From a virus: 64,000 nucleotides of DNA. The stretch lies in the IMG/VR virus record IMGVR_UViG_3300028392_000041, positions 47,828-111,827 of that record. The stretch is one strand, 5' to 3'. Below, piece by piece: positions 10,850 to 39,189 of this stretch. Made by a program: the position numbers and the translations under genes. The notes beneath the pieces are model-generated. The model worked only from the letters and a program-made list of their open reading frames with translations. It was not told where the DNA came from and did no database searches. Numbering within the stretch: position 1 is the stretch's first letter; each line of letters opens with the position of its first letter.

Positions 10850-11293
10850 TTAGAATGAATATTTCAAGCCAGCAATAACAGTACTACCATCTAAAGAACT
10901 AACTTTAGATTGTCCTGCTTGATAACGATAATCAGCAGTGAGAGCAACTTGTTTGCTTAATGGATAAGAAACACCAGCACCAACTAATGCAGCATAGCCA
11001 TCAGTTGTATTCTTTTGATCCAAGTAAGCAACTCCACCTTTAACTGCGATGGTCGCTGCACCAACTGTTGCAACATCATACGAACCAACTAAAGTGTACT
11101 TGTTCATGTCAGTTCCAGTTTTGTATTGATCAAATCCAGCAGTGATGCCTACTTTATCAAACTTCTGTCCAACAGTAATACCTACACCAGTACGATCTGT
11201 ATTGGCAGTATCGCGACTTGCGTTGATACCTAGTTCAACTGCTTGAACACCCATAGATGCCAATAATGCTGCGATTAAAATAACTTTTTTCAT
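10850..11293 (-). CDS. Small outer-membrane beta-barrel protein (OmpA/Ail-like)
   Basis: Signal peptide, alternating beta strands, C-terminal AGLKYSF beta-signal. Confidence 0.8.
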   Translation of the reverse strand: MKKVILIAALLASMGVQAVELGINASRDTANTDRTGVGITVGQKFDKVGITAGFDQYKTGTDMNKYTLVGSYDVATVGAATIAVKGGVAYLDQKNTTDGYAALVGAGVSYPLSKQVALTADYRYQAGQSKVSSLDGSTVIAGLKYSF

Positions 11294-11314
11294 TTAATTC
11301 CCTTTTTAAAAAAT

Positions 11315-11605
11315 ATGGTAACTTATTCTGTTACGAGGAAAGTTACCGAAACCCTAGTCAGCGATTAAGCTGCCAATGCGAACTGTGAGTCGTTTGCGTT
11401 TACTTTTGTTTAGTTTTAACATCTACTCTGATGGGTTGTCCACTTCTATACTTGTTACCCTGTCGAAACCTAGTCACCCCCATCAGAAGCACACCCATTA
11501 GAGCCCATAAAATGGTTTCTTTCATCTAACACATGCACTTCTGGTGGAGGTGGGGAGAATCGAACTCCCGTCCAGAATACTTTTCTAGTTGCTTCACACA
11601 ACCAT
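11315..11605 (-). ncRNA. ssrA: Circularly permuted two-piece tmRNA; tag ANDSQFALAA
   Basis: Acceptor piece ...GGACGGGAGTTCGATTCTCCCCACCTCCACCA (ends 11542) precedes a 60-nt intervening stem and the coding piece GGGGGTGACTAGGTTTCGAC (starts 11481); G3-U70; tag ORF 11397-11365; outer ends approximate. Confidence 0.92.
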
Positions 11606-11641
11606 TCACCTATTATACATTATATATTTATTATAGTCAAA

Positions 11642-32000: not shown

Positions 32001-32586
32001 GTAATCCCTTAATTGTCATTACATCGATGTTTATAATACATCGAACATTATTTTTAGGTTGTTCCGCTGTATGATACATACTACCATCAAACAAAACAAC
32101 CCTACCTTGTTTCGGTGTTATTCTTTGAACTAAATCGTGATCTTCTATACTACATCCAGTTTCTAAAACACCATTCTCTTTATACTTAGATGAAATTAAA
32201 GTATCACCATCAGAATCAAACACATAGTATAAAATAACTAGATGATCGATATGCGTGTCTATGTGTAAATCGTCCAGCTTCTTTGGAAGAAAATCTTGAT
32301 TTAATGGGAGTTGAAGAAACGATCTTGCCCTTAGAACGGAAGATGTTTGAATTCCTGCTTGCTCGCAACCATAATGCACCAGAGGAGCAAAGAAATTCCA
32401 ATGTGGACTACAGACAGTACCATTTTCGGCAACAAAAACATGCCTAAATCCAGGAGAATTATTGATAACTTTCGTTGGGTCAGTTATGTCGTGAGTATAG
32501 TACCAACCAAACTCATTACTTCTTACGAGCTGTTTTATGTGCTCTTGATACGATACTGGGATAAAATTGTCAATTATTTTAATCAT
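31993..32586 (-). CDS. 2OG-Fe(II) oxygenase-like
   Basis: HID, YYV.DSDGDT, PK.GR.VLFDG..YH. Confidence 0.82.
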   Translation of the reverse strand: MIKIIDNFIPVSYQEHIKQLVRSNEFGWYYTHDITDPTKVINNSPGFRHVFVAENGTVCSPHWNFFAPLVHYGCEQAGIQTSSVLRARSFLQLPLNQDFLPKKLDDLHIDTHIDHLVILYYVFDSDGDTLISSKYKENGVLETGCSIEDHDLVQRITPKQGRVVLFDGSMYHTAEQPKNNVRCIINIDVMTIKGLHV

Positions 32587-32589
32587 TAG

Positions 32590-33156
32590 TCATTCAACAT
32601 AATTAAGCCAACCAGTAATTATATATTTTTCCTGAGTTGGTGAAGTAATTCCTCTGTGAGTAAATGTCCAATCTGCTGGCCAAATCAATGTTAAACCTTT
32701 TTCTGGTTTAATTTTTATTTTTTGATGGAAAAATTCTGTTTCTCCTCCATCAGTAACAGTATTTAGATATGTCATAAAGACCAAATGTCTTGAACAATGT
32801 GGTTCTTTAGTTTTTGCTCGTTCAGTATGCCAAGCAACGAACCCTTCATTTGGTTTATAGTGTTGTACATTTGCTGCTTGTATAACTTTGAACGGAGAAT
32901 AGTGATTACAAAATGGATATTCTTTTATATACTCATCAATAGATTTTTGTAAATAATTACTATATTCTTTTATTATATCACCACTGAGCATTACATCAGT
33001 GCTTTGTTTAATCGACTTGTCAACACCAGCAGTAACTTTTCCAGGTAACTTATCTGGACTGTCTTTATGAAATTTAATAAGTTGGTCTATAAGAGTAGTA
33101 TCGTTGTACCAGCCACCAATAAAATTATAAAGTTGATTTACTGAATGTGAAAGCAT
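32590..33156 (-). CDS. 2OG-Fe(II) oxygenase (prolyl-4-hydroxylase-like)
   Basis: WHTE, MTYLN.V.DGGETEF, WPA.WTFTHRG, KYIITGW. Confidence 0.88.
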   Translation of the reverse strand: MLSHSVNQLYNFIGGWYNDTTLIDQLIKFHKDSPDKLPGKVTAGVDKSIKQSTDVMLSGDIIKEYSNYLQKSIDEYIKEYPFCNHYSPFKVIQAANVQHYKPNEGFVAWHTERAKTKEPHCSRHLVFMTYLNTVTDGGETEFFHQKIKIKPEKGLTLIWPADWTFTHRGITSPTQEKYIITGWLNYVE

Positions 33157-33164
33157 AATATATT

Positions 33165-33238
33165 TGGTTGCGGAGGGCGGAATCGAACCACCAACTGAAG
33201 CATATGAAACTTCTGAGATACCGTTTCTCTACTCCGCG
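33165..33238 (-). tRNA. tRNA-Met(CAT), initiator-like (C1xA72) but lacking the 3 G-C anticodon pairs
   Basis: Cloverleaf folded by hand; CCA encoded. Confidence 0.8.
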
Positions 33239-33243
33239 ATTGT

Positions 33244-33516
33244 TTAATATAATTTTTCAGGTAATTGTTGAGAACGAATCTGCTTGCGCCATCTTGCCTT
33301 TGCTCTACCCTTTGCCAACTTTCTTTGAATAGATGGTTTAAGATATTCCTGACGATCGCGAAGTTCTTGCAATAGACCATTCGCTTCAATCTTACGCTTG
33401 AACAGACGCAGTGCTTGTTCAAATCTACCATCTTGAACTTCTACCTTACTGCCATCGTAGCGTTTCTCTCGATGTTTACCTCTGCCGTATTCTTTTTGCC
33501 TTTGCGGTATTGTCAA
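33244..33516 (-). CDS. rpsU: Ribosomal protein bS21 with N-terminal extension
   Basis: V.V....FEQALRLFKRK....GLL.ELR.RQ.Y.KPS..RK; AGGAG SD before TTG. Confidence 0.9.
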   Translation of the reverse strand: MTIPQRQKEYGRGKHREKRYDGSKVEVQDGRFEQALRLFKRKIEANGLLQELRDRQEYLKPSIQRKLAKGRAKARWRKQIRSQQLPEKLY

Positions 33517-33534
33517 ACTATTCTCCTAAAATTT

Positions 33535-33610
33535 TGGTGCCCCTCGACAGATTCGAACTGCCGACCTTCGCATTACTAATGCGCTGCTCTACCAACTGAG
33601 CCAGAGGGGC
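33535..33610 (-). tRNA. tRNA-Thr(AGT)
   Basis: GCGCA-TT AGT AA-TGCGA; Thr-type body; CCA. Confidence 0.88.
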
Positions 33611-33621
33611 GAGTAAAGTAT

Positions 33622-34248
33622 TTATACGATTCTCATTGTGTTTATTGAACACTTAGTAAGCGCATAATTAAAACTTAATGAAATCCTACACTCATCTGTA
33701 TCTGTTGTAAATCTATCAGTACAATGTTCTAACCAACTGGGAAACAGAAGCATCAAAGCGAACTCTGGTTTGTATTTCCATGCCCTGTATGAGATTGGGG
33801 ATTCTTTTATAAAATTTCCATGCTGCATCATTTTTGCTGGTCTTGGATCTATAAAAGATATATCGCCTATATCTTTGTCAGCTGGAACATTTAAGTAAAC
33901 AACACCTGATAAAAATGAATTTGGGTGTTGATGTGTTCTGTGTCCATTTCCAGTATTTCCAATTTGAGAATTACTCCACATACAAGAAAGACTCAAAGAA
34001 TTTTGTTCTAGTCCCAATGCTTCTGTTGAGAATGATTGAACTTCATTATCAATGTGTTTAACTAATTCTTTAAATTGTGATAGTGTGTTTAGATTATCTT
34101 TGGTGCTTCCTGATAAACTTTTAGAAAGAGATTCTTTATCAAGAAGTTTTTGAACTTCTTGTTTTGCAGTTGAACATACACTATGATCTAGATTCGAGAT
34201 CCCAATAGGTGTAGCAAATAAATTATCAACTCTTCTATGCATAATATT
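33622..34248 (-). CDS. Putative 2OG-Fe(II) oxygenase (TIGR02466-like)
   Basis: HQHPNSFLSGVVY, F.DPRP, FPSWLEH, RISLSFN. Confidence 0.87.
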   Translation of the reverse strand, partial: NIMHRRVDNLFATPIGISNLDHSVCSTAKQEVQKLLDKESLSKSLSGSTKDNLNTLSQFKELVKHIDNEVQSFSTEALGLEQNSLSLSCMWSNSQIGNTGNGHRTHQHPNSFLSGVVYLNVPADKDIGDISFIDPRPAKMMQHGNFIKESPISYRAWKYKPEFALMLLFPSWLEHCTDRFTTDTDECRISLSFNYALTKCSINTMRIV

Positions 34249-34250
34249 CA

Positions 34251-34398
34251 ATTAGTTTAGTGCTATCGTGCCGATTTGCCAAAAATGTAGCTAACACTGG
34301 CGAGCGAGTGGCAGTTATATCAGACAGTGTCAGTCGCACCCTAACTGTCGAGTAGTCATAGCGTCCTATGACGATTACCTTGATAACACTAAACTAAT
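34251..34398 (-). ncRNA. Unidentified structured RNA (about 148 nt) 3' of tRNA-Gly
   Basis: 17-bp closing helix with one U-G pair on the - strand; internal hairpins; no credible ORF. Confidence 0.7.
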
Positions 34399-34471
34399 GG
34401 AGCGGGATATCAGAATCGAACTGATGACGAAAGATTGGAAATCTCTAGTTTTGCCATTAAACTAATCCCGC
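34398..34471 (-). tRNA. tRNA-Gly(TCC)
   Basis: Cloverleaf; U73; CCA. Confidence 0.9.
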
Positions 34472-34472
34472 A

Positions 34473-34708
34473 AATGCTTCCTGTCCGTCGTGGTAATTAT
34501 AGTACATCAGGATTTAGTTGGTTGTCTCTCATATCCATCACGCATACCCTCCACCCACTCGCCACGGACAGAACTCTCGTGTTGCCAACGCTGGTTAGGT
34601 CGACCCATGATTTTACTCATGCCCTATTCAAAGGGAGAACCATCCTACTGATAGCCAATCAGTTTCTCTCATGCGGATCACATTAGCAGTGGTTAGCTGC
34701 GAGCCCAT
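34473..34708 (-). ncRNA. Unidentified structured RNA (about 235 nt) with own sigma70 promoter
   Basis: TTGACA-N17-TATAAT at 34743-34715; several hairpins and a long CTGTCCGT/ACGGACAG helix. Confidence 0.6.
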
Positions 34709-34759
34709 ATAGTAATTATACCCGACTTATACTAAAATGTCAAATCGAATGCAATTATT

Positions 34760-34835
34760 TGGAGTAGGTGACAGGAATCGAACCTGCATTATTCAGATTT
34801 GCAATCTGCTGCCTAGCCATTCAGCGCACACCTAC
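34760..34835 (-). tRNA. tRNA-Cys(GCA)
   Basis: Cloverleaf; U73; CCA. Confidence 0.88.
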
Positions 34836-35386
34836 ATTAACCTTACTCTGCTGTGTTTAGGAACACCCGATAACAAGTAATCCATTTGATCAGCAAGAAT
34901 TTGTCTGTTTTCTAAAATCATTCTTTCGTAGTGGTTTGGTTCGTACGGAACATATAAAAGTTCCATATTTGCTTTCTCTAGTGACTTGCTACCTTTTTTG
35001 GCATTGCACTTCAAACAAGCAGTAACCACATTCATCCAGATATTCAGACCACCCTTTGAAACAGGATGAATATGATCTCTAGACAAATGACCAGAACCAT
35101 GTACATCACCGCAGTAAGCGCACATGTGTCTGTCTCTACCGAACAATGTTTTGTTTGTTAGAACAACTTTACCAATTCTTTCGATAGAGGTATTACCTTT
35201 TACGGCAATGATTGATTTAGTTTCTAGTACTGACTGTGTCCCATCGTTACGGTAGCCACCACGGTATGTCGCGATAGTTTCACCAAGCGACCAAACAACT
35301 TGGTCTTTGGCGTGGTAACAAATTGCATCATCAAAATTTACCCATGCTCTTGGTAAACCTGATGAGTCCAGTGCTAGAACATTCAT
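34832..35386 (-). CDS. HNH endonuclease (McrA-like) inside tRNA array
   Basis: RD.H.CAYCG...DHIHP.SKGG...W.NVVTAC..CN..K. Confidence 0.9.
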   Translation of the reverse strand: MNVLALDSSGLPRAWVNFDDAICYHAKDQVVWSLGETIATYRGGYRNDGTQSVLETKSIIAVKGNTSIERIGKVVLTNKTLFGRDRHMCAYCGDVHGSGHLSRDHIHPVSKGGLNIWMNVVTACLKCNAKKGSKSLEKANMELLYVPYEPNHYERMILENRQILADQMDYLLSGVPKHSRVRLM

Positions 35387-35417
35387 ATCATTCCCTTTCT
35401 TGTTCTACTATTTAGAT

Positions 35418-35494
35418 TGGTGTCCCCCAAGGGATTCGAACCCTCATCTTATCAATTATGAGTTGACAGCATTGACCAGTTATGCTAAAGGAAC
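35418..35494 (-). tRNA. tRNA(CAT), probably Ile2 (lysidine)
   Basis: Loop CT CAT AA; Ile2 versus Met is inference. Confidence 0.78.
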
Positions 35495-35496
35495 AT

Positions 35497-35573
35497 TGGT
35501 GCGGATACCGAGACTCGAACTCGGAGAACTCAGATTTTAAGTCTGATATGTATACCAATTCCATCATATCCGC
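35497..35573 (-). tRNA. tRNA-Leu(TAA), short variable arm
   Basis: Cloverleaf 77 nt; CCA. Confidence 0.88.
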
Positions 35574-35578
35574 AAACT

Positions 35579-35653
35579 TGGTGCCCCGAGAGGGAATTGA
35601 ACCCCCATAATGACTTTAGAAGAATCATGTCCTATCCATTGAACGATCGGGGC
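35579..35653 (-). tRNA. tRNA-Arg(TCT)
   Basis: Cloverleaf; CCA. Confidence 0.9.
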
Positions 35654-35660
35654 AATACAC

Positions 35661-35750
35661 TGGTGGAAGATCAGGGAGTCGAACCCTGTGAGCGTATTAC
35701 TACACTCTACGGATTAGCAATCCGCTGCATTACCATCCTGCCCATCTTCC
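35661..35750 (-). tRNA. tRNA-Ser(GCT)
   Basis: Long variable arm; CCA. Confidence 0.9.
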
Positions 35751-35755
35751 TAACT

Positions 35756-35829
35756 TGGCATCCCAGCAGGGACTTGAACCCCGACTAATAGTTTTGGAGA
35801 CTATCGTGCTGCCATTACACTACTGAGAT
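35756..35829 (-). tRNA. tRNA-Trp(CCA)
   Basis: Cloverleaf; G73; CCA. Confidence 0.9.
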
Positions 35830-35834
35830 ATATT

Positions 35835-35908
35835 TGGTGCCCCATGACAGAATCGAACTGCCGTAACCTGATTACAAAACAGGTGTAATACCATTATACT
35901 AATAGGGC
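35835..35908 (-). tRNA. tRNA-Thr(TGT)
   Basis: Cloverleaf; CCA. Confidence 0.9.
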
Positions 35909-35916
35909 AAAAATTT

Positions 35917-35991
35917 TGGTGGAGGATGGGAGGATCGAACTCCCACTTCATGCTTGCAAAGCACATGTGCTCCCATTATCACTAATCCCCC
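35917..35991 (-). tRNA. tRNA-Ala(TGC)
   Basis: G3-U70; CCA. Confidence 0.92.
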
Positions 35992-35997
35992 AAAACA

Positions 35998-36074
<77 letters not shown>

Positions 36075-36082
36075 AATAAAAC

Positions 36083-36157
36083 TGGCTCCGAAGGCAGGGA
36101 TCGAACCTGCGACCAATTGATTAACAGTCAACTGCACTACCGCTGTGCTACTTCGGA
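36083..36157 (-). tRNA. tRNA-Asn(GTT)
   Basis: U1-A72, G73; CCA. Confidence 0.92.
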
Positions 36158-36163
36158 ATATAC

Positions 36164-36238
36164 TGGAGCAGGATATCGGATTTGAACCGATGACATTTTC
36201 GTTGGCAACGAAACATTCTACCACTGAATTAATCCTGC
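36164..36238 (-). tRNA. tRNA-Gly(GCC)
   Basis: Cloverleaf; U73; CCA. Confidence 0.92.
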
Positions 36239-36247
36239 ATAAAAACT

Positions 36248-36322
36248 TGGTACCTTGTGACAGATTCGAACTGCCGACCTTCTCCGTGTAAAAGAGACAT
36301 TCTACCACTGAAATAACAAGGC
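36248..36322 (-). tRNA. tRNA-Val(TAC)
   Basis: Cloverleaf; CCA. Confidence 0.9.
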
Positions 36323-36325
36323 ATT

Positions 36326-36402
36326 TGGTACCGAGGGTGGGACTCGAACCCACAAGATTTAGTTTCTAAGACTAACATGTATACCAATTCCATCACCTCG
36401 GC
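36326..36402 (-). tRNA. tRNA-Leu(TAG), short variable arm
   Basis: Cloverleaf 77 nt; CCA. Confidence 0.88.
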
Positions 36403-36410
36403 ATTAACTA

Positions 36411-36488
36411 TGGTACCCCACCCCTGATTCGAACAGGGATACCTCTTCCTTTTGAGAGAAGCGACTTTACCAATTTGTCCAGTGGGGC
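36411..36488 (-). tRNA. tRNA-Leu(CAA), short variable arm
   Basis: Cloverleaf 78 nt; CCA. Confidence 0.87.
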
Positions 36489-36490
36489 AC

Positions 36491-36565
36491 TGGTACTCGG
36501 TGATGGTTACGATCCATCTACAGCTGCCTTATCAAGACAGTACCTCACCATTCGGTCTACCGAGT
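36491..36565 (-). tRNA. tRNA-Ile(GAT), non-canonical T-loop
   Basis: CTGTC-TT GAT AA-GGCAG; T-loop ATCGTAA; CCA. Confidence 0.8.
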
Positions 36566-36571
36566 ATAATA

Positions 36572-36660
36572 TGGAGGAAGGATGGTAGAATCGAACTCCA
36601 TGCGCTTTCGCACACCTTCTGCTTTCAAAACAGAGTCCAGCCCAGCTGAATTAACCTTCC
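36572..36660 (-). tRNA. tRNA-Ser(TGA), atypical (bulged T-stem, U73)
   Basis: TCTGT-TT TGA AA-GCAGA; long variable arm; CCA. Confidence 0.75.
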
Positions 36661-36665
36661 GTATC

Positions 36666-36740
36666 TGGTAGTGATAGTAGGATTCGAACCTACGATAACT
36701 TGCGTATGAAGCAAGCGCATTACCACTTTGCTATATCACT
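36666..36740 (-). tRNA. tRNA-Met(CAT), elongator-like
   Basis: Loop TT CAT AC; CCA. Confidence 0.85.
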
Positions 36741-36750
36741 AAAAACTTTT

Positions 36751-36824
36751 TGGGGTGACTAGTGGGAGTTGAACCCACACGAAGAGAATCACAATCTCTG
36801 ATGCTACCATTACATCATAGTCAC
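36751..36824 (-). tRNA. tRNA-His(GTG)
   Basis: C73; CCA; base at -1 is T rather than G. Confidence 0.87.
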
Positions 36825-36837
36825 ACCAAAAAGTTCT

Positions 36838-36911
36838 TGGTAGGGGCACAGAGAATCGAACTCTGATTTGTTGGTTAAAAGCCGACTACTTTTCCGTTAA
36901 GTTATACCCCC
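36838..36911 (-). tRNA. tRNA-Lys(TTT)
   Basis: Cloverleaf; CCA. Confidence 0.88.
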
Positions 36912-37026
36912 GAATCTTATCTAACCTGCGCAATGCTTTGTTTGTTTTGCGATGCGCACCAGCTTTTCTAAACAATGCCAGAACAACGAACTGGTTGCGT
37001 TGCTTGGCGATCATCTTTCGCTTCAT
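36886..37026 (-). CDS. Small basic protein (46 aa) whose stop lies inside tRNA-Lys (not in ORF track)
   Basis: AGGAG SD; MKRKMIAKQRNQFVVLALFRKAGAHRKTNKALRRLDKIRGYNLTEK*. Confidence 0.75.
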   Translation of the reverse strand: MKRKMIAKQRNQFVVLALFRKAGAHRKTNKALRRLDKIRGYNLTEK

Positions 37027-37044
37027 CGTTCTTCTCCTAAAAAT

Positions 37045-37120
37045 TGGTACCCCATAAAGGAATCGAACCTCTACCTCTGCGTTCGTAGCACAGTATGATT
37101 ATCCATTTCACCAATGGGGC
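37045..37120 (-). tRNA. tRNA-Arg(ACG)
   Basis: Loop CT ACG AA; CCA. Confidence 0.9.
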
Positions 37121-37126
37121 ATAATA

Positions 37127-37202
37127 TGGTACCGAGAGTAGGACTTGAACCTACCACACCTTGTGCTTCAAACAAGTGCTCTACCAGATGAGCTACCTCG
37201 GC
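37127..37202 (-). tRNA. tRNA-Phe(GAA)
   Basis: Loop TT GAA GC; CCA. Confidence 0.9.
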
Positions 37203-37210
37203 AAAAATTT

Positions 37211-37285
37211 TGGCGACTCGTAGGGGAATCGAACCCCTGTATCCTGTTAGACAGACAGGTATAATGACCATTATATGAACGAGCC
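37211..37285 (-). tRNA. tRNA-Asp(GTC)
   Basis: Loop CT GTC TA; G73; CCA. Confidence 0.9.
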
Positions 37286-37292
37286 AAAAAAC

Positions 37293-37381
37293 TGGTGGAA
37301 GTGGTAGGATTCGAACCTACAGCGTTTCTTATGTGGCGGATTTACAGTCCGTTGCCTTCAACCAATTCAGCACACACTTCC
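37293..37381 (-). tRNA. tRNA-Tyr(GTA)
   Basis: Long variable region; CCA. Confidence 0.9.
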
Positions 37382-37388
37382 AAAACTT

Positions 37389-37464
37389 TGGTACACCATG
37401 GGGGAATCGAACCCCTCCTTTTGTCTGTGAAAGAGACATGTCCTAACCGATAGACGAATGGTGC
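37389..37464 (-). tRNA. tRNA-Glu(TTC)
   Basis: Loop CT TTC AC; CCA. Confidence 0.9.
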
Positions 37465-37469
37465 ATATA

Positions 37470-37706
37470 CCAAACTAAAATACACTGGGATGATCAGCAA
37501 CAACCATCACCCGATGGCTAACCACGCTGTCGTCCAGCGATTGGTCGCTTCTCACATTACATTCCAACTTTCTCCAGCGTGACCACCGTATCCGTCTTAC
37601 GACTTCGTTTCCATCTTTCGTGTAATCTAGCGAGCGATACTCCGTCGAGTATCCTGAACTCCTAGATCACCTACTGGTTTTGGTAACCCAATGTATTTTA
37701 GTTTGG
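37470..37706 (-). ncRNA. Unidentified structured RNA (about 237 nt) between tRNA-Gln and tRNA-Glu
   Basis: 20-bp closing helix with one U-G pair on the - strand; several internal hairpins. Confidence 0.75.
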
Positions 37707-37777
37707 CAGGGGTACTTGGAATCGAACCAAGAACGACGGAATCAAAATCCGTTGTGATACCACTTCACTATACCCCA
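37704..37777 (-). tRNA. tRNA-Gln(TTG), first tRNA of array
   Basis: Cloverleaf; G73; CCA. Confidence 0.9.
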
Positions 37778-37792
37778 ACAACTATCGCGAAA

Positions 37793-37805
37793 TTTTTAAA
37801 GAGCA
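37793..37805 (-). promoter_or_regulatory. rrn-type boxA antitermination element
   Basis: TGCTCTTTAAAAA just before first tRNA; one mismatch to TGCTCTTTAACA. Confidence 0.75.
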
Positions 37806-37812
37806 GGATTGA

Positions 37813-37841
37813 ATTATACATCGAAACGAAATATAAGTCAA
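37813..37841 (-). promoter_or_regulatory. Proximal sigma70 promoter (P2) of tRNA array
   Basis: TTGACT-N17-TATAAT. Confidence 0.8.
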
Positions 37842-37869
37842 TCAATAACCCTACAAATTAGTAGGGTAT

Positions 37870-37909
37870 AAAACAAAAAACCCTCGGGACTTTCATCTCC
37901 GAGGGTTTT
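37870..37909 (-). terminator. Intrinsic terminator of putative attenuator
   Basis: AAAACCCTCGG...GAAA...CCGAGGGTTTT followed by TTGTTTT. Confidence 0.88.
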
Positions 37910-37934
37910 GGTAAATAAATTTGTAGTCTAAGAC

Positions 37935-38060
37935 TTACTTACCAAAACCCCCTGAATCATTCTCAATCGCATATCCTAATGATGATACTGTGCGTGAGCA
38001 TGTCCAGCCACTAAACAGTGGGAGCGGATGCTTCTGCATGGATATCGATCTTAGTAACAT
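37935..38060 (-). CDS. Putative attenuator leader peptide (41 aa, all 20 amino acids; not in ORF track)
   Basis: MLLRSISMQKHPLPLFSGWTCSRTVSSLGYAIENDSGGFGK*; AAGGA SD; 3' end is antiterminator strand. Confidence 0.8.
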   Translation of the reverse strand: MLLRSISMQKHPLPLFSGWTCSRTVSSLGYAIENDSGGFGK

Positions 38061-38110
38061 TTGAAAATTTATTCCTTGAAAATTTGATAAGAACCTAAGT
38101 CCTTATCGTT

Positions 38111-38150
38111 TATTTATAGTAATTATACACTCAATTTGATTAAATGTCAA
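38111..38150 (-). promoter_or_regulatory. Tandem sigma70 (TTGACA-N17-TATAAT) and T4 late (TATAAATA) promoters (P1) upstream of leader
   Basis: -35 at 38150-38145, -10 at 38127-38122, late box 38118-38111. Confidence 0.85.
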
Positions 38151-38574
38151 TCTTTTTTACATTTATTTTGCAACTATTCAGAAAATTAATTCCGTCTTCA
38201 TCACGATACGCATCACGATAATAGACTGTGTTTATTCCTGCGCCATGAACCAACTTAGCGCAATGAATACAGGGAGCATGGGTGCAGAATAGAGTACTAC
38301 CATTGCCACTTTCTCCATCACGAGCCAACTTGAGTATAGCATTTGCTTCAGCATGAATAACCTCATCTTTCGTTTTCAAAACAACAGTATCATCAGACAA
38401 CTGAACCACATTCTCGCATTCATTTGTCCAACCAGCTGGCATACCATTGTAACCAATCGAGATAATACGATTATCCTTGACTACGACAGCCCCAACTTTC
38501 AATCGCTTCGCTGAAGACAACTGAGCAAATCGTTCAGCTGTATCCATGAAGGCATCAACCCACTTCTGTTTCAA
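38140..38574 (-). CDS. cd: dCMP deaminase
   Basis: GYNG, HAEANA, PC..C. Confidence 0.92.
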   Translation of the reverse strand: MKQKWVDAFMDTAERFAQLSSAKRLKVGAVVVKDNRIISIGYNGMPAGWTNECENVVQLSDDTVVLKTKDEVIHAEANAILKLARDGESGNGSTLFCTHAPCIHCAKLVHGAGINTVYYRDAYRDEDGINFLNSCKINVKKIDI

Positions 38575-39189
38575 TGTACTACCTCTTCAGTTTTCTTCAT
38601 TGGTTGGTTAGAAATCTCAGAACACAATGTTCTAAAATCTTCACCAGCACCAAGTGAGTCACAAAGCAACATCATTCGAGCCAACATCACTGCGCTCATG
38701 CTCAAGGCACTCATCTTATGTTGTTCTGCCCATGTAATCATTGTTCCGTCAATTTTCATTGACAATGCAATCAAATCTTCATCAGTCATTTGTGTTTTCC
38801 CATCCACTGCATTAGTATATCTCGTGCTTGGTGTTTAGTCAAACCAAACTCTTGCTGAAGATAAGGTGCTGCGCCAAACATGTTGGTGACACCACTCTTA
38901 CGCAATTGTTCCAAATAATCAAAATACTGTTTCATTTCGCCATTACCTTTCCAAGTAAAGATTTTGCTTCATCAAAATTATCCAACTTTGCTTCAATCTC
39001 AAGCATCTCTGCTTTCAGTTTCAATTCACGAGAGTATGCGTCAAGCAATTGCTGAGCATAAACTCTGTCGTCTTCATCAGACTGTTCCCAGAATGCAGTA
39101 AAGTCATCGCCTTTGGTATTCAACAGAAACTCTAAATTATCGCGATCCCAATCGCTGGTAATAAACCCTTTGAATCCTGACTGTATCAT
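38571..39189 (-). other. Three small hypothetical ORFs (38571-38789, 38786-38935, 38932-39189)
   Basis: ATGA overlaps; middle ORF MKQYFDYLEQLRKSGVTNMFGAAPYL hand-translated. Confidence 0.6.

Follow-up and report, generated by a model that had tools for sequence, protein, structure and literature searches.

How is transcription controlled in a phage that carries transfer RNA (tRNA) genes for all 20 amino acids? The question is raised by a 64,000-nt stretch of the IMG/VR virus record IMGVR_UViG_3300028392_000041 (the window, whose positions are used as coordinates throughout), in which a short open reading frame (ORF) and an intrinsic terminator precede a complete tRNA array on the minus strand. 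The anatomy of this leader region is real and highly non-random. From homologue comparisons and folding models, it is probably a ribosome-mediated leader-peptide transcription attenuator that heads the complete tRNA operon of the phage.

Leader-peptide attenuators of amino-acid operons include the trpL, hisL, leuL and pheL leaders and the multivalent thrL and ilvGMEDA leaders, which sense two or three amino acids. To our knowledge, little has been established about the control of phage tRNA array expression.

Homologue collection and coverage of the leader ORF

Relatives were collected in two sets. For the first, IMG/VR loci were anchored on the neighbouring deaminase gene (80 loci at 64–87% identity), about 40 of which carry the element. 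For the second, IMG/VR was scanned with a DNA pattern of the terminator, which added 120 loci and is biased toward this terminator. The deaminase-anchored set, free of that bias, has the same features. Deduplication left 47 distinct versions at the nucleotide level, which encode 45 distinct peptides; these relatives come from lake viromes.

The leader ORF (38060-37935, minus strand) comprises 41 sense codons plus TAA. Its translation agrees with the peptide quoted in an initial annotation of this DNA: all 20 amino acids are present by codon 35, 32 distinct sense codons are used, ATG alone is repeated among the first 23, and the isoacceptor codons listed there for Leu, Ser, Arg, Ile, Gly and Pro were all found. 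Among 27,291 stop-free 41-codon windows, 20 amino acids occur by chance in 0.43%, at least 32 codons in 1.4% and both in 0.026%. The leader holds a cognate codon for 23 of the 25 anticodons called by ARAGORN (24 of 26 with the additional tRNA-Ser(UGA) described below), whereas windows from the phage's own genes (n = 5532) match 16.1 ± 2.3 anticodons, with a maximum of 22. By both measures, codon diversity exceeds that of random windows, as had been expected.

An ATG-to-stop frame of 32–55 codons, with its stop inside the putative antiterminator strand A (see below), is present in 47 of 47 distinct sequences. All 20 amino-acid types occur in 29 of the 45 peptides and 19 types in the remaining 16, so that the short ORF with full amino-acid coverage foreseen for related phages was recovered from 47 distinct relatives, at 19–20 types in all. 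Some peptides of only 36–38 residues hold all 20 types; in the phage's own ORFs, this is seen in 0.4% of 41-residue and 0.1% of 36-residue windows. Shuffling of alignment columns gave a coverage of 18.23 ± 0.12 against 19.64 observed (reached by 0 of 2000 shuffles). With 13 representatives of less than 60% identity, the values were 18.24 ± 0.23 and 19.85 (0 of 5000). Because column shuffles lower it, coverage is not explained by shared ancestry alone.

Cys is single-copy in 42 of 45 peptides and is distributed over 8 alignment columns; His (6 columns) and Tyr (5 columns) are each single-copy in 44 of 45. Where the Cys of the canonical WTC is lost (WTG, WNS or WTI), Cys is found elsewhere (MKNC, MINC, SQSC, SIQC, ISMC, VVCK, KCDW or PSCN). 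Every leader (100%) uses both Leu codon boxes; 96% use both Ser boxes, 96% contain ATA and 91% use both Arg boxes. In relatives with full arrays, about 88–93% of anticodons are matched by the leader. As judged from these alignments, the amino-acid coverage of the leader is under selection.

A correspondence between amino acids missing from a leader and tRNAs missing from its array was considered and rejected, as the Val-less relatives L105 and L114, whose full arrays are readable, have tRNA-Val. The Gln-less leader of L006/L164 precedes a Glu-first array on contigs too short to judge the presence of tRNA-Gln.

Alternative RNA structures

The leader transcript is strongly structured (z = -5.7). 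In a constrained fold, strand A (37952-37933, minus strand), which comprises the five final sense codons, the stop and 2 further nt, pairs over 20 bp with strand B (37920-37901, minus strand). The final 5 nt of strand B (CCCUC, 37905-37901) form the base of the terminator 5′ arm. The end of the ORF had been proposed to pair with this downstream strand over 18 bp, and an 18–20-bp hairpin was indeed obtained. The terminator (37905-37870, minus strand) lies between the leader ORF and the tRNA genes, as annotated initially. It has a 10-bp GC-rich stem (7+3 bp) with a GAAA loop (37905-37881), followed by a U-tract (37880-37870), and its motif occurs once in the 111.8-kb genome.

For the whole element, RNAalifold returned the terminator and one internal hairpin and did not return the A:B helix, which was therefore tested explicitly by column pairing and run-length comparison. 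Over 45 distinct rows, the A:B helix is 87.6% paired, including pairs with both sides changed, and in a control with the partner shifted by one column, the pairing is lost. In 47 of 47 versions, strand A has a U-run as long as the A-run of strand B (4:4 in 32, 3:3 in 14 and 2:2 in one). The codon opposite CCCUC is GGG, GAG or AAG (Gly, Glu or Lys), with nearly equal pairing. One-base deletions in A frameshift the peptide tail from GFGK to GLASR, GLDKK or RVRQVN. Because these deletions are matched in both strands, selection appears to keep the helix and not the tail. For the terminator, pairing reaches 97.9% and the upper stem covaries; compensatory changes, which had been suggested as a check, were accordingly seen in both helices.

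The antiterminator and terminator had been described as mutually exclusive. This stands insofar as the 5 shared nucleotides are the base of the terminator stem; the overlap is limited to CCCUC, however, and the full-length minimum free energy structure, with the U-tract free to pair, contains a shortened hairpin beside the terminator. An upstream CUCCC that might pair with strand A as an anti-antiterminator was rejected for lack of conservation, many relatives having CTA CCA instead.

Covariation also marked a hairpin within the ORF (CCACU-GUUU-AGUGG, 38021-38008, minus strand), which spans the LP..SGW codons; of 4 pairs, 3 are changed on both sides. This is possibly a pause hairpin, and together with the GGCUGGACAUG block it may be a candidate polymerase pause element.

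Structure of this kind could also belong to a non-coding element, that is, a small stable RNA or a 5′ processing or stability module of the tRNA precursor in which the frame is incidental. The strong predicted structure, the nucleotide-level conservation described below and the compact promoter-to-terminator unit of about 190–250 nt would suit such an element. It is nevertheless very improbable: the frame is open in 47 of 47 versions with the ATG 6–7 nt from the -10 box in most, indels 5′ of strand A have lengths divisible by three, strand A contains the stop codon in every case, and the coverage statistics are meaningful in the reading frame only.

Evolution of the leader peptide

The peptide consensus is M..(I/L)S...KHLPL.SGW(T/N)C(S/T)R(P/T)..GYAIE.D.GGFGK, in which M1, LP and W are invariant. 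The initial annotation had anticipated a poorly conserved peptide; conservation is moderate instead (49% mean column identity). Codon-position entropy, compared over one set of 24 genomes, was 0.68 / 0.67 / 0.83 for the leader ORF and 0.49 / 0.27 / 1.07 for the neighbouring deaminase. In the nucleotide-conserved block GGCUGGACAUGCUCACGC (38009-37992, minus strand; NCA CGC NCA columns of the alignment), base 1 varies (Ser/Thr/Ala, then Pro/Thr/Ser) and base 3 is fixed. Conservation of the leader looks nucleotide-level rather than protein-level, and by these comparisons the ORF does not evolve like a protein gene.

AlphaFold2 (21 sequences) gave a predicted local distance difference test score of 59 and no secondary structure, which is weak evidence against a fold. 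Pfam contained no family for the leader peptide, and PHROGs gave one marginal match (phrog_16402, E = 0.032, unknown function). No homologue of the leader peptide was found among 5.8 billion predicted proteins, so gene callers seem not to report the ORF.

These data bear on whether the leader is instead an independent small gene, encoding a functional micropeptide or a TnaC-like ligand-responsive arrest peptide, with the array expressed separately or by leaky termination and its composition inherited. The invariant LP and W, the nearly invariant R, E, D and G, the unit's own consensus promoter and strong terminator, and the second promoter that the window and about half of the relatives have 3′ of the terminator would all be expected of such a gene. 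We consider it unlikely in view of the near-absent codon-position periodicity, unlike that of the neighbouring gene, the varying first and fixed third positions of the NCA CGC NCA block, and the indels that shift the frame and exchange the C-terminus but leave the RNA helix intact. The single-copy Cys, His and Tyr change position with coverage staying at 19–20, and the peptide has no confidently predicted fold and no clear family. Furthermore, the unit was never seen apart from a tRNA array, and relatives with short spacers have no room for a good array promoter.

Folding models of the proposed switch

Switch models were based on equilibrium folding and assumed ribosome footprints. The U-tract, which sits in the RNA:DNA hybrid at the termination decision, was left out. 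Under these settings, the antiterminator state was more stable than the terminator state by 1.85 kcal/mol on average (range -2.3 to +5.2). In whole-transcript partition functions, the median probability of CCCU being paired upstream was 0.60, compared with 0.085 for the terminator, and the antiterminator was more probable in 36 of 47 homologues. With a 28-nt ribosome footprint, the probability of the terminator was at most 0.16 as long as the A site lay at codons 2–33; it was 0.30 at Asn34 and 0.98 for all positions from Asp35 through the stop. Three relatives gave this step as well. The earlier proposal that a ribosome finishing the leader causes termination agrees with the value of 0.98 modelled from codon 35 to the stop. 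Its counterpart, that a stall at any earlier codon favours the antiterminator, holds in the footprint model for codons 2–33, while codons from Asp35 on are not sensed. The models predict read-through, not termination, without translation; a covarying hairpin is observed in the ORF, with a nucleotide-conserved block after it.

Taken as an attenuator, the element would operate as follows. Transcription would start at the upstream promoter P1, in most relatives at or a few nucleotides from the ATG, giving a leaderless messenger RNA (mRNA). The 41-codon leader would present about one codon for nearly every tRNA species encoded in the array. Strand A, comprising the last five sense codons and the stop, and its partner B, ending in CCCUC at the base of the terminator 5′ arm, would form the switch. 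If strand A is ribosome-free, either through a stall or lag at codons 2–33 or because the leader is untranslated, the A:B helix would form first. This helix would hold CCCUC, the terminator would remain incomplete, and polymerase would pass a boxA-like element into the tRNA genes. An undelayed ribosome between codon 35 and the stop would cover strand A and leave CCCUC free, whereupon the terminator would form and transcription would stop. The net effect would be negative feedback, in which slow decoding of any codon class leads to more tRNA transcription. We infer translation of the ORF as well as the timing and the switch behaviour.

The same geometry would fit an attenuator that reports overall ribosome availability or initiation, for example upon host shut-off, and not individual tRNAs; coverage would then be irrelevant. 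Read-through as the default of the naked RNA, the weakness of single codons as sensors and the leaderless starts, which make initiation a plausible control point, are compatible with this. The explanation is quite unlikely, as it leaves the amino-acid, split-box and anticodon coverage and the relocation of residues unaccounted for, and likewise the unrelated leaders that mirror partial tRNA clusters in other phages (see below).

Promoters, spacers and read-through

P1 (TTGACA-17-TATAAT, 38150-38122, minus strand) was found by promoter scan and scores 12/12 as a sigma-70 promoter. It is followed by TATAAATA (38118-38111, minus strand), a putative motif resembling T4 late promoters by sequence match. 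Of the tandem promoters annotated initially, the sigma-70 promoter thus stands, and the late-promoter call is weak, as no enrichment of TATAAATA was found in the window (3 copies versus 4.6 expected). The sole support for a late-promoter role is (T/C)TAAATA(G/A) at the same place in relatives having a 5′ untranslated region (5′UTR). Two of the three copies in the window are on the tRNA strand within the tRNA region; the second copy lies at 33619-33626 (minus strand), 9 nt upstream of tRNA-Thr(AGU).

RNA folding placed a hairpin in the 5′UTR (GAUAAGGAC-UUAG-GUUCUUAUC, 38107-38086, minus strand), with counterparts in L007, L048, L055 and L058. A Shine-Dalgarno (SD)-like AAGGA (38077-38073, minus strand) is located 12 nt upstream of the ATG, which matches the spacing of about 12 nt given before. 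Relatives of the 5′UTR type keep a CAAGGAAA-N9-12-ATG layout. In 29 distinct versions, a promoter scoring 10–12/12 ends 6–7 nt before the ATG, so leaderless mRNA is predicted for these; in seven more, the distance is 10–12 nt.

Downstream DNA sufficed for a comparison of spacers in 44 distinct versions. The distance from the terminator to the first tRNA is 10–55 nt in 23 of them. The best promoter-like match in these short spacers scores at most 8/12 in 22 of 23 and 9/12 in one. With no good promoter in the spacer, the array of short-spacer relatives would hardly be transcribed except by read-through. Overall, tRNA-Gln lies 34–316 nt 3′ of the terminator, and tRNA-Glu of L006/L164 at 10 nt. 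A second promoter 3′ of the terminator was found in about half of the relatives, all of the long-spacer type. The window is of the long-spacer type, and the second promoter noticed initially was recovered in its 98-nt spacer (P2, TTGACT-17-TATAAT, 37841-37813, minus strand, score 11/12). In the window, the attenuator would modulate the P1-derived share only. Its co-gating of the complete tRNA operon there fits the layout, and the comparative evidence agrees.

A boxA-like motif, TGCTCTTTAAAAA (37805-37793, minus strand), is located about 28 nt upstream of tRNA-Gln. In most relatives, T[GT][CT]TC[CT]TT[TA]A[AC]AA is found 26–30 nt before tRNA-Gln, and at 62–116 nt in a few long-spacer ones. Most short-spacer versions keep the motif, at 26–29 nt. 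Variants in relatives read TGTTCTTTAAAAA or TGTTCTTTTACAA. Polymerases that get beyond the attenuator could acquire an rrn-type antitermination complex at this motif.

Metatranscriptome contigs gave one match to the leader, a 151-nt contig (37951-38101, depth 2, run X16) that may reflect DNA carry-over and bears neither way. No contig bridges the terminator, and contigs cannot show 3′ ends.

tRNA genes and neighbouring features

The array (37777-33165, minus strand) starts with tRNA-Gln (37777-37704) and contains 27 tRNAs called by ARAGORN plus tRNA-Ser(UGA), covering all 20 amino acids. This accounts for the 28 tRNAs of the initial annotation. ARAGORN called 27 tRNAs and one transfer-messenger RNA (tmRNA) in the window and did not call the gene at 36576-36660 (minus strand), which Rfam scores as a sub-threshold tRNA-Sec (40.6 versus 47 bits). 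Its anticodon loop UUUGAAA, long variable arm and encoded CCA identify it as tRNA-Ser(UGA), which decodes the four TCA codons of the leader. The tmRNA gene (11274-11634, minus strand; tag ANDSQFALAA) is present beside this full tRNA set.

For 77 instances of the element, at least 400 nt of downstream DNA were available. In 76 of these, the first 400 nt downstream contain a tRNA (Gln in 74, Glu in 2), and the lone exception has 29 tRNAs slightly farther downstream. Full arrays of relatives span all 20 amino acids. In the window, the dCMP deaminase gene (38574-38140, minus strand) adjoins the leader upstream. Because the leader-to-deaminase distance differs by more than 1 kb among relatives, the element appears to travel with the array.

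Two divergent branches were noted. In L094, L106, L121, L125 and L161, the leader heads arrays of 24–27 tRNAs with tRNA-Trp first. With 34–35 residues, these leaders cover 19 amino-acid types; their start is leaderless and a second promoter is present. L006/L164 has a 32-residue leader with 19 types, lacking Gln, 10 nt before its tRNA-Glu-first array.

Between tRNA-Gln and tRNA-Glu, the window contains a 237-nt gap free of tRNAs and ORFs (37470-37706, minus strand), in which Rfam gave no match. Contigs of metatranscriptome run X19 (54x and 277x) partly match 37565-37625, at about 92% over 52–61 nt. Since these contigs are deep, the gap suggests an abundant conserved small RNA.

A blastn search of the region against GenBank phages returned tRNA-Gln and deaminase fragments only and no close cultured relative. 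The RNR large subunit had distant matches only, to Alcaligenes and Pelagibacter phages (53–62%). Public DNA runs containing the stretch carry freshwater, lake-water or aquatic metagenome labels.

Discussion

The element would work like a trp/his-type attenuator with a different gene class and a different default state. Modelled in this way, both have a promoter, a short ORF, antiterminator and terminator sharing a strand, and an outcome set by ribosome position. The trp/his-type attenuators, however, regulate biosynthetic enzymes and have tandem regulatory codons, whereas the phage element precedes tRNAs and its leader has about one codon per tRNA species without runs. The predicted default of the phage element without translation is read-through, and the 1:2 anti-antiterminator of the trp type is not among the helices shown. 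The phage element further differs in that most relatives are leaderless and that 5 nt are shared between the two structures. Sequence homology to these attenuators was not seen: the Rfam His_leader model (RF00514) scored 25.3 bits against a gathering threshold of 49 (E = 0.61), which is at chance level; other Rfam matches at E ≤ 1 were tRNAs and chance hits only.

T-box riboswitches are similar in that transcription attenuation answers tRNA charging status. A T-box, however, acts without translation, through direct binding of a single uncharged tRNA, and controls aminoacyl-tRNA synthetase or amino-acid genes, whereas the phage element has a conserved ORF. The T-box covariance model gave no match at E ≤ 1 in 32500-38700.

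Translational stress induces the long tRNA array of the Anabaena sp. PCC 7120 trn operon (PMC8421152), which is controlled by promoter repeats and the repressor TrcR (PMC8421152, PMC10272220). Its near-complete set of accessory tRNAs is transcribed more strongly under impaired translation, as is proposed for the phage operon. The trn operon differs in being located on a cellular megaplasmid and not in a phage; none of the strings 'leader', 'attenuat' and 'terminator' appears in the paper. A full-text literature search found no leader peptide or attenuator controlling tRNA genes.

The terminator scan of IMG/VR also turned up unrelated small ORFs just before terminators and tRNA clusters of other phages, and their composition mirrors the tRNAs of the cluster (L144 at about 12097(-), L163, L118:1102(+), L078:1435(+), L086:4446(+), L119:6962(+) and L017:4812(+)). 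The Ser/Arg-rich MKTTIKNTSSRSRSSKSSEVRLYS precedes Arg-Ser-Ser(-Arg) tRNAs (P about 1e-5), and a variant of it precedes Arg-Ser-Ser (P about 1e-6). The N/L/T/P/W leader MKFNLTNLPTLNLPVWQRGFLL precedes Leu-Trp-Pro-Thr-Asn-Met (P = 4e-4), and an S/N/Y/F-rich leader precedes Ser-Ser-Asn-Phe (P = 6e-3). These P values are a partial check, with the amino-acid frequencies of the phage in the window as background.

Several observations weigh against an attenuator that senses tRNAs through its leader. In the window, the strong P2 gives attenuator-independent expression, and the spacing of the SD-like motif is long. With one or few codons per amino acid, sensitivity to a mild shortage would be low compared with the runs of his/leu-type leaders. 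Val is absent from 12 of the 45 distinct leader peptides, and the sole Asp codon (codon 35) falls in the modelled non-sensed zone. The terminator is predicted to be favoured in 11 of 47 homologues, energy gaps of about 1–2 kcal/mol do not exceed the error of the folding model, and antiterminator and terminator overlap by just 5 nt. The invariance of LP and W and near-invariance of R, E, D and G make a peptide function or an arrest peptide conceivable. Finally, the homologues share ancestry and the second search needed the terminator sequence, so the counts overstate independence.

Phage tRNA arrays are now regarded as a means of countering tRNA-cleaving defences and the decay of host tRNAs (PMC11555353, PMC11464382). 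For the attenuator considered here, the trigger would presumably be host tRNA shortage, codon-usage mismatch or tRNA-cleaving defences; a link to anticodon nucleases is purely conjectural. In a stricter form of the proposal, which we rate slightly below even, the leader would be a pan-tRNA sensor: failure of any codon class would switch on the complete replacement tRNA set, and the array would be an inducible counter-defence, not a constitutive codon-usage aid. Such a sensor could be triggered by a host anticodon nuclease, another tRNA-targeting defence or host tRNA decay in infection. Together with the codon-matched leaders before partial arrays, it would then represent a widespread and so far undescribed class of tRNA-gene attenuators.

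If the attenuator reading is true, a classic mechanism has been put to a new use, with the translation machinery as its output and a panel of one of each codon as its sensor. It would provide a feedback model for viral tRNA supply and a compact natural reporter of any decoding defect. It would also account for the small unannotated ORFs before tRNA clusters in many phages.

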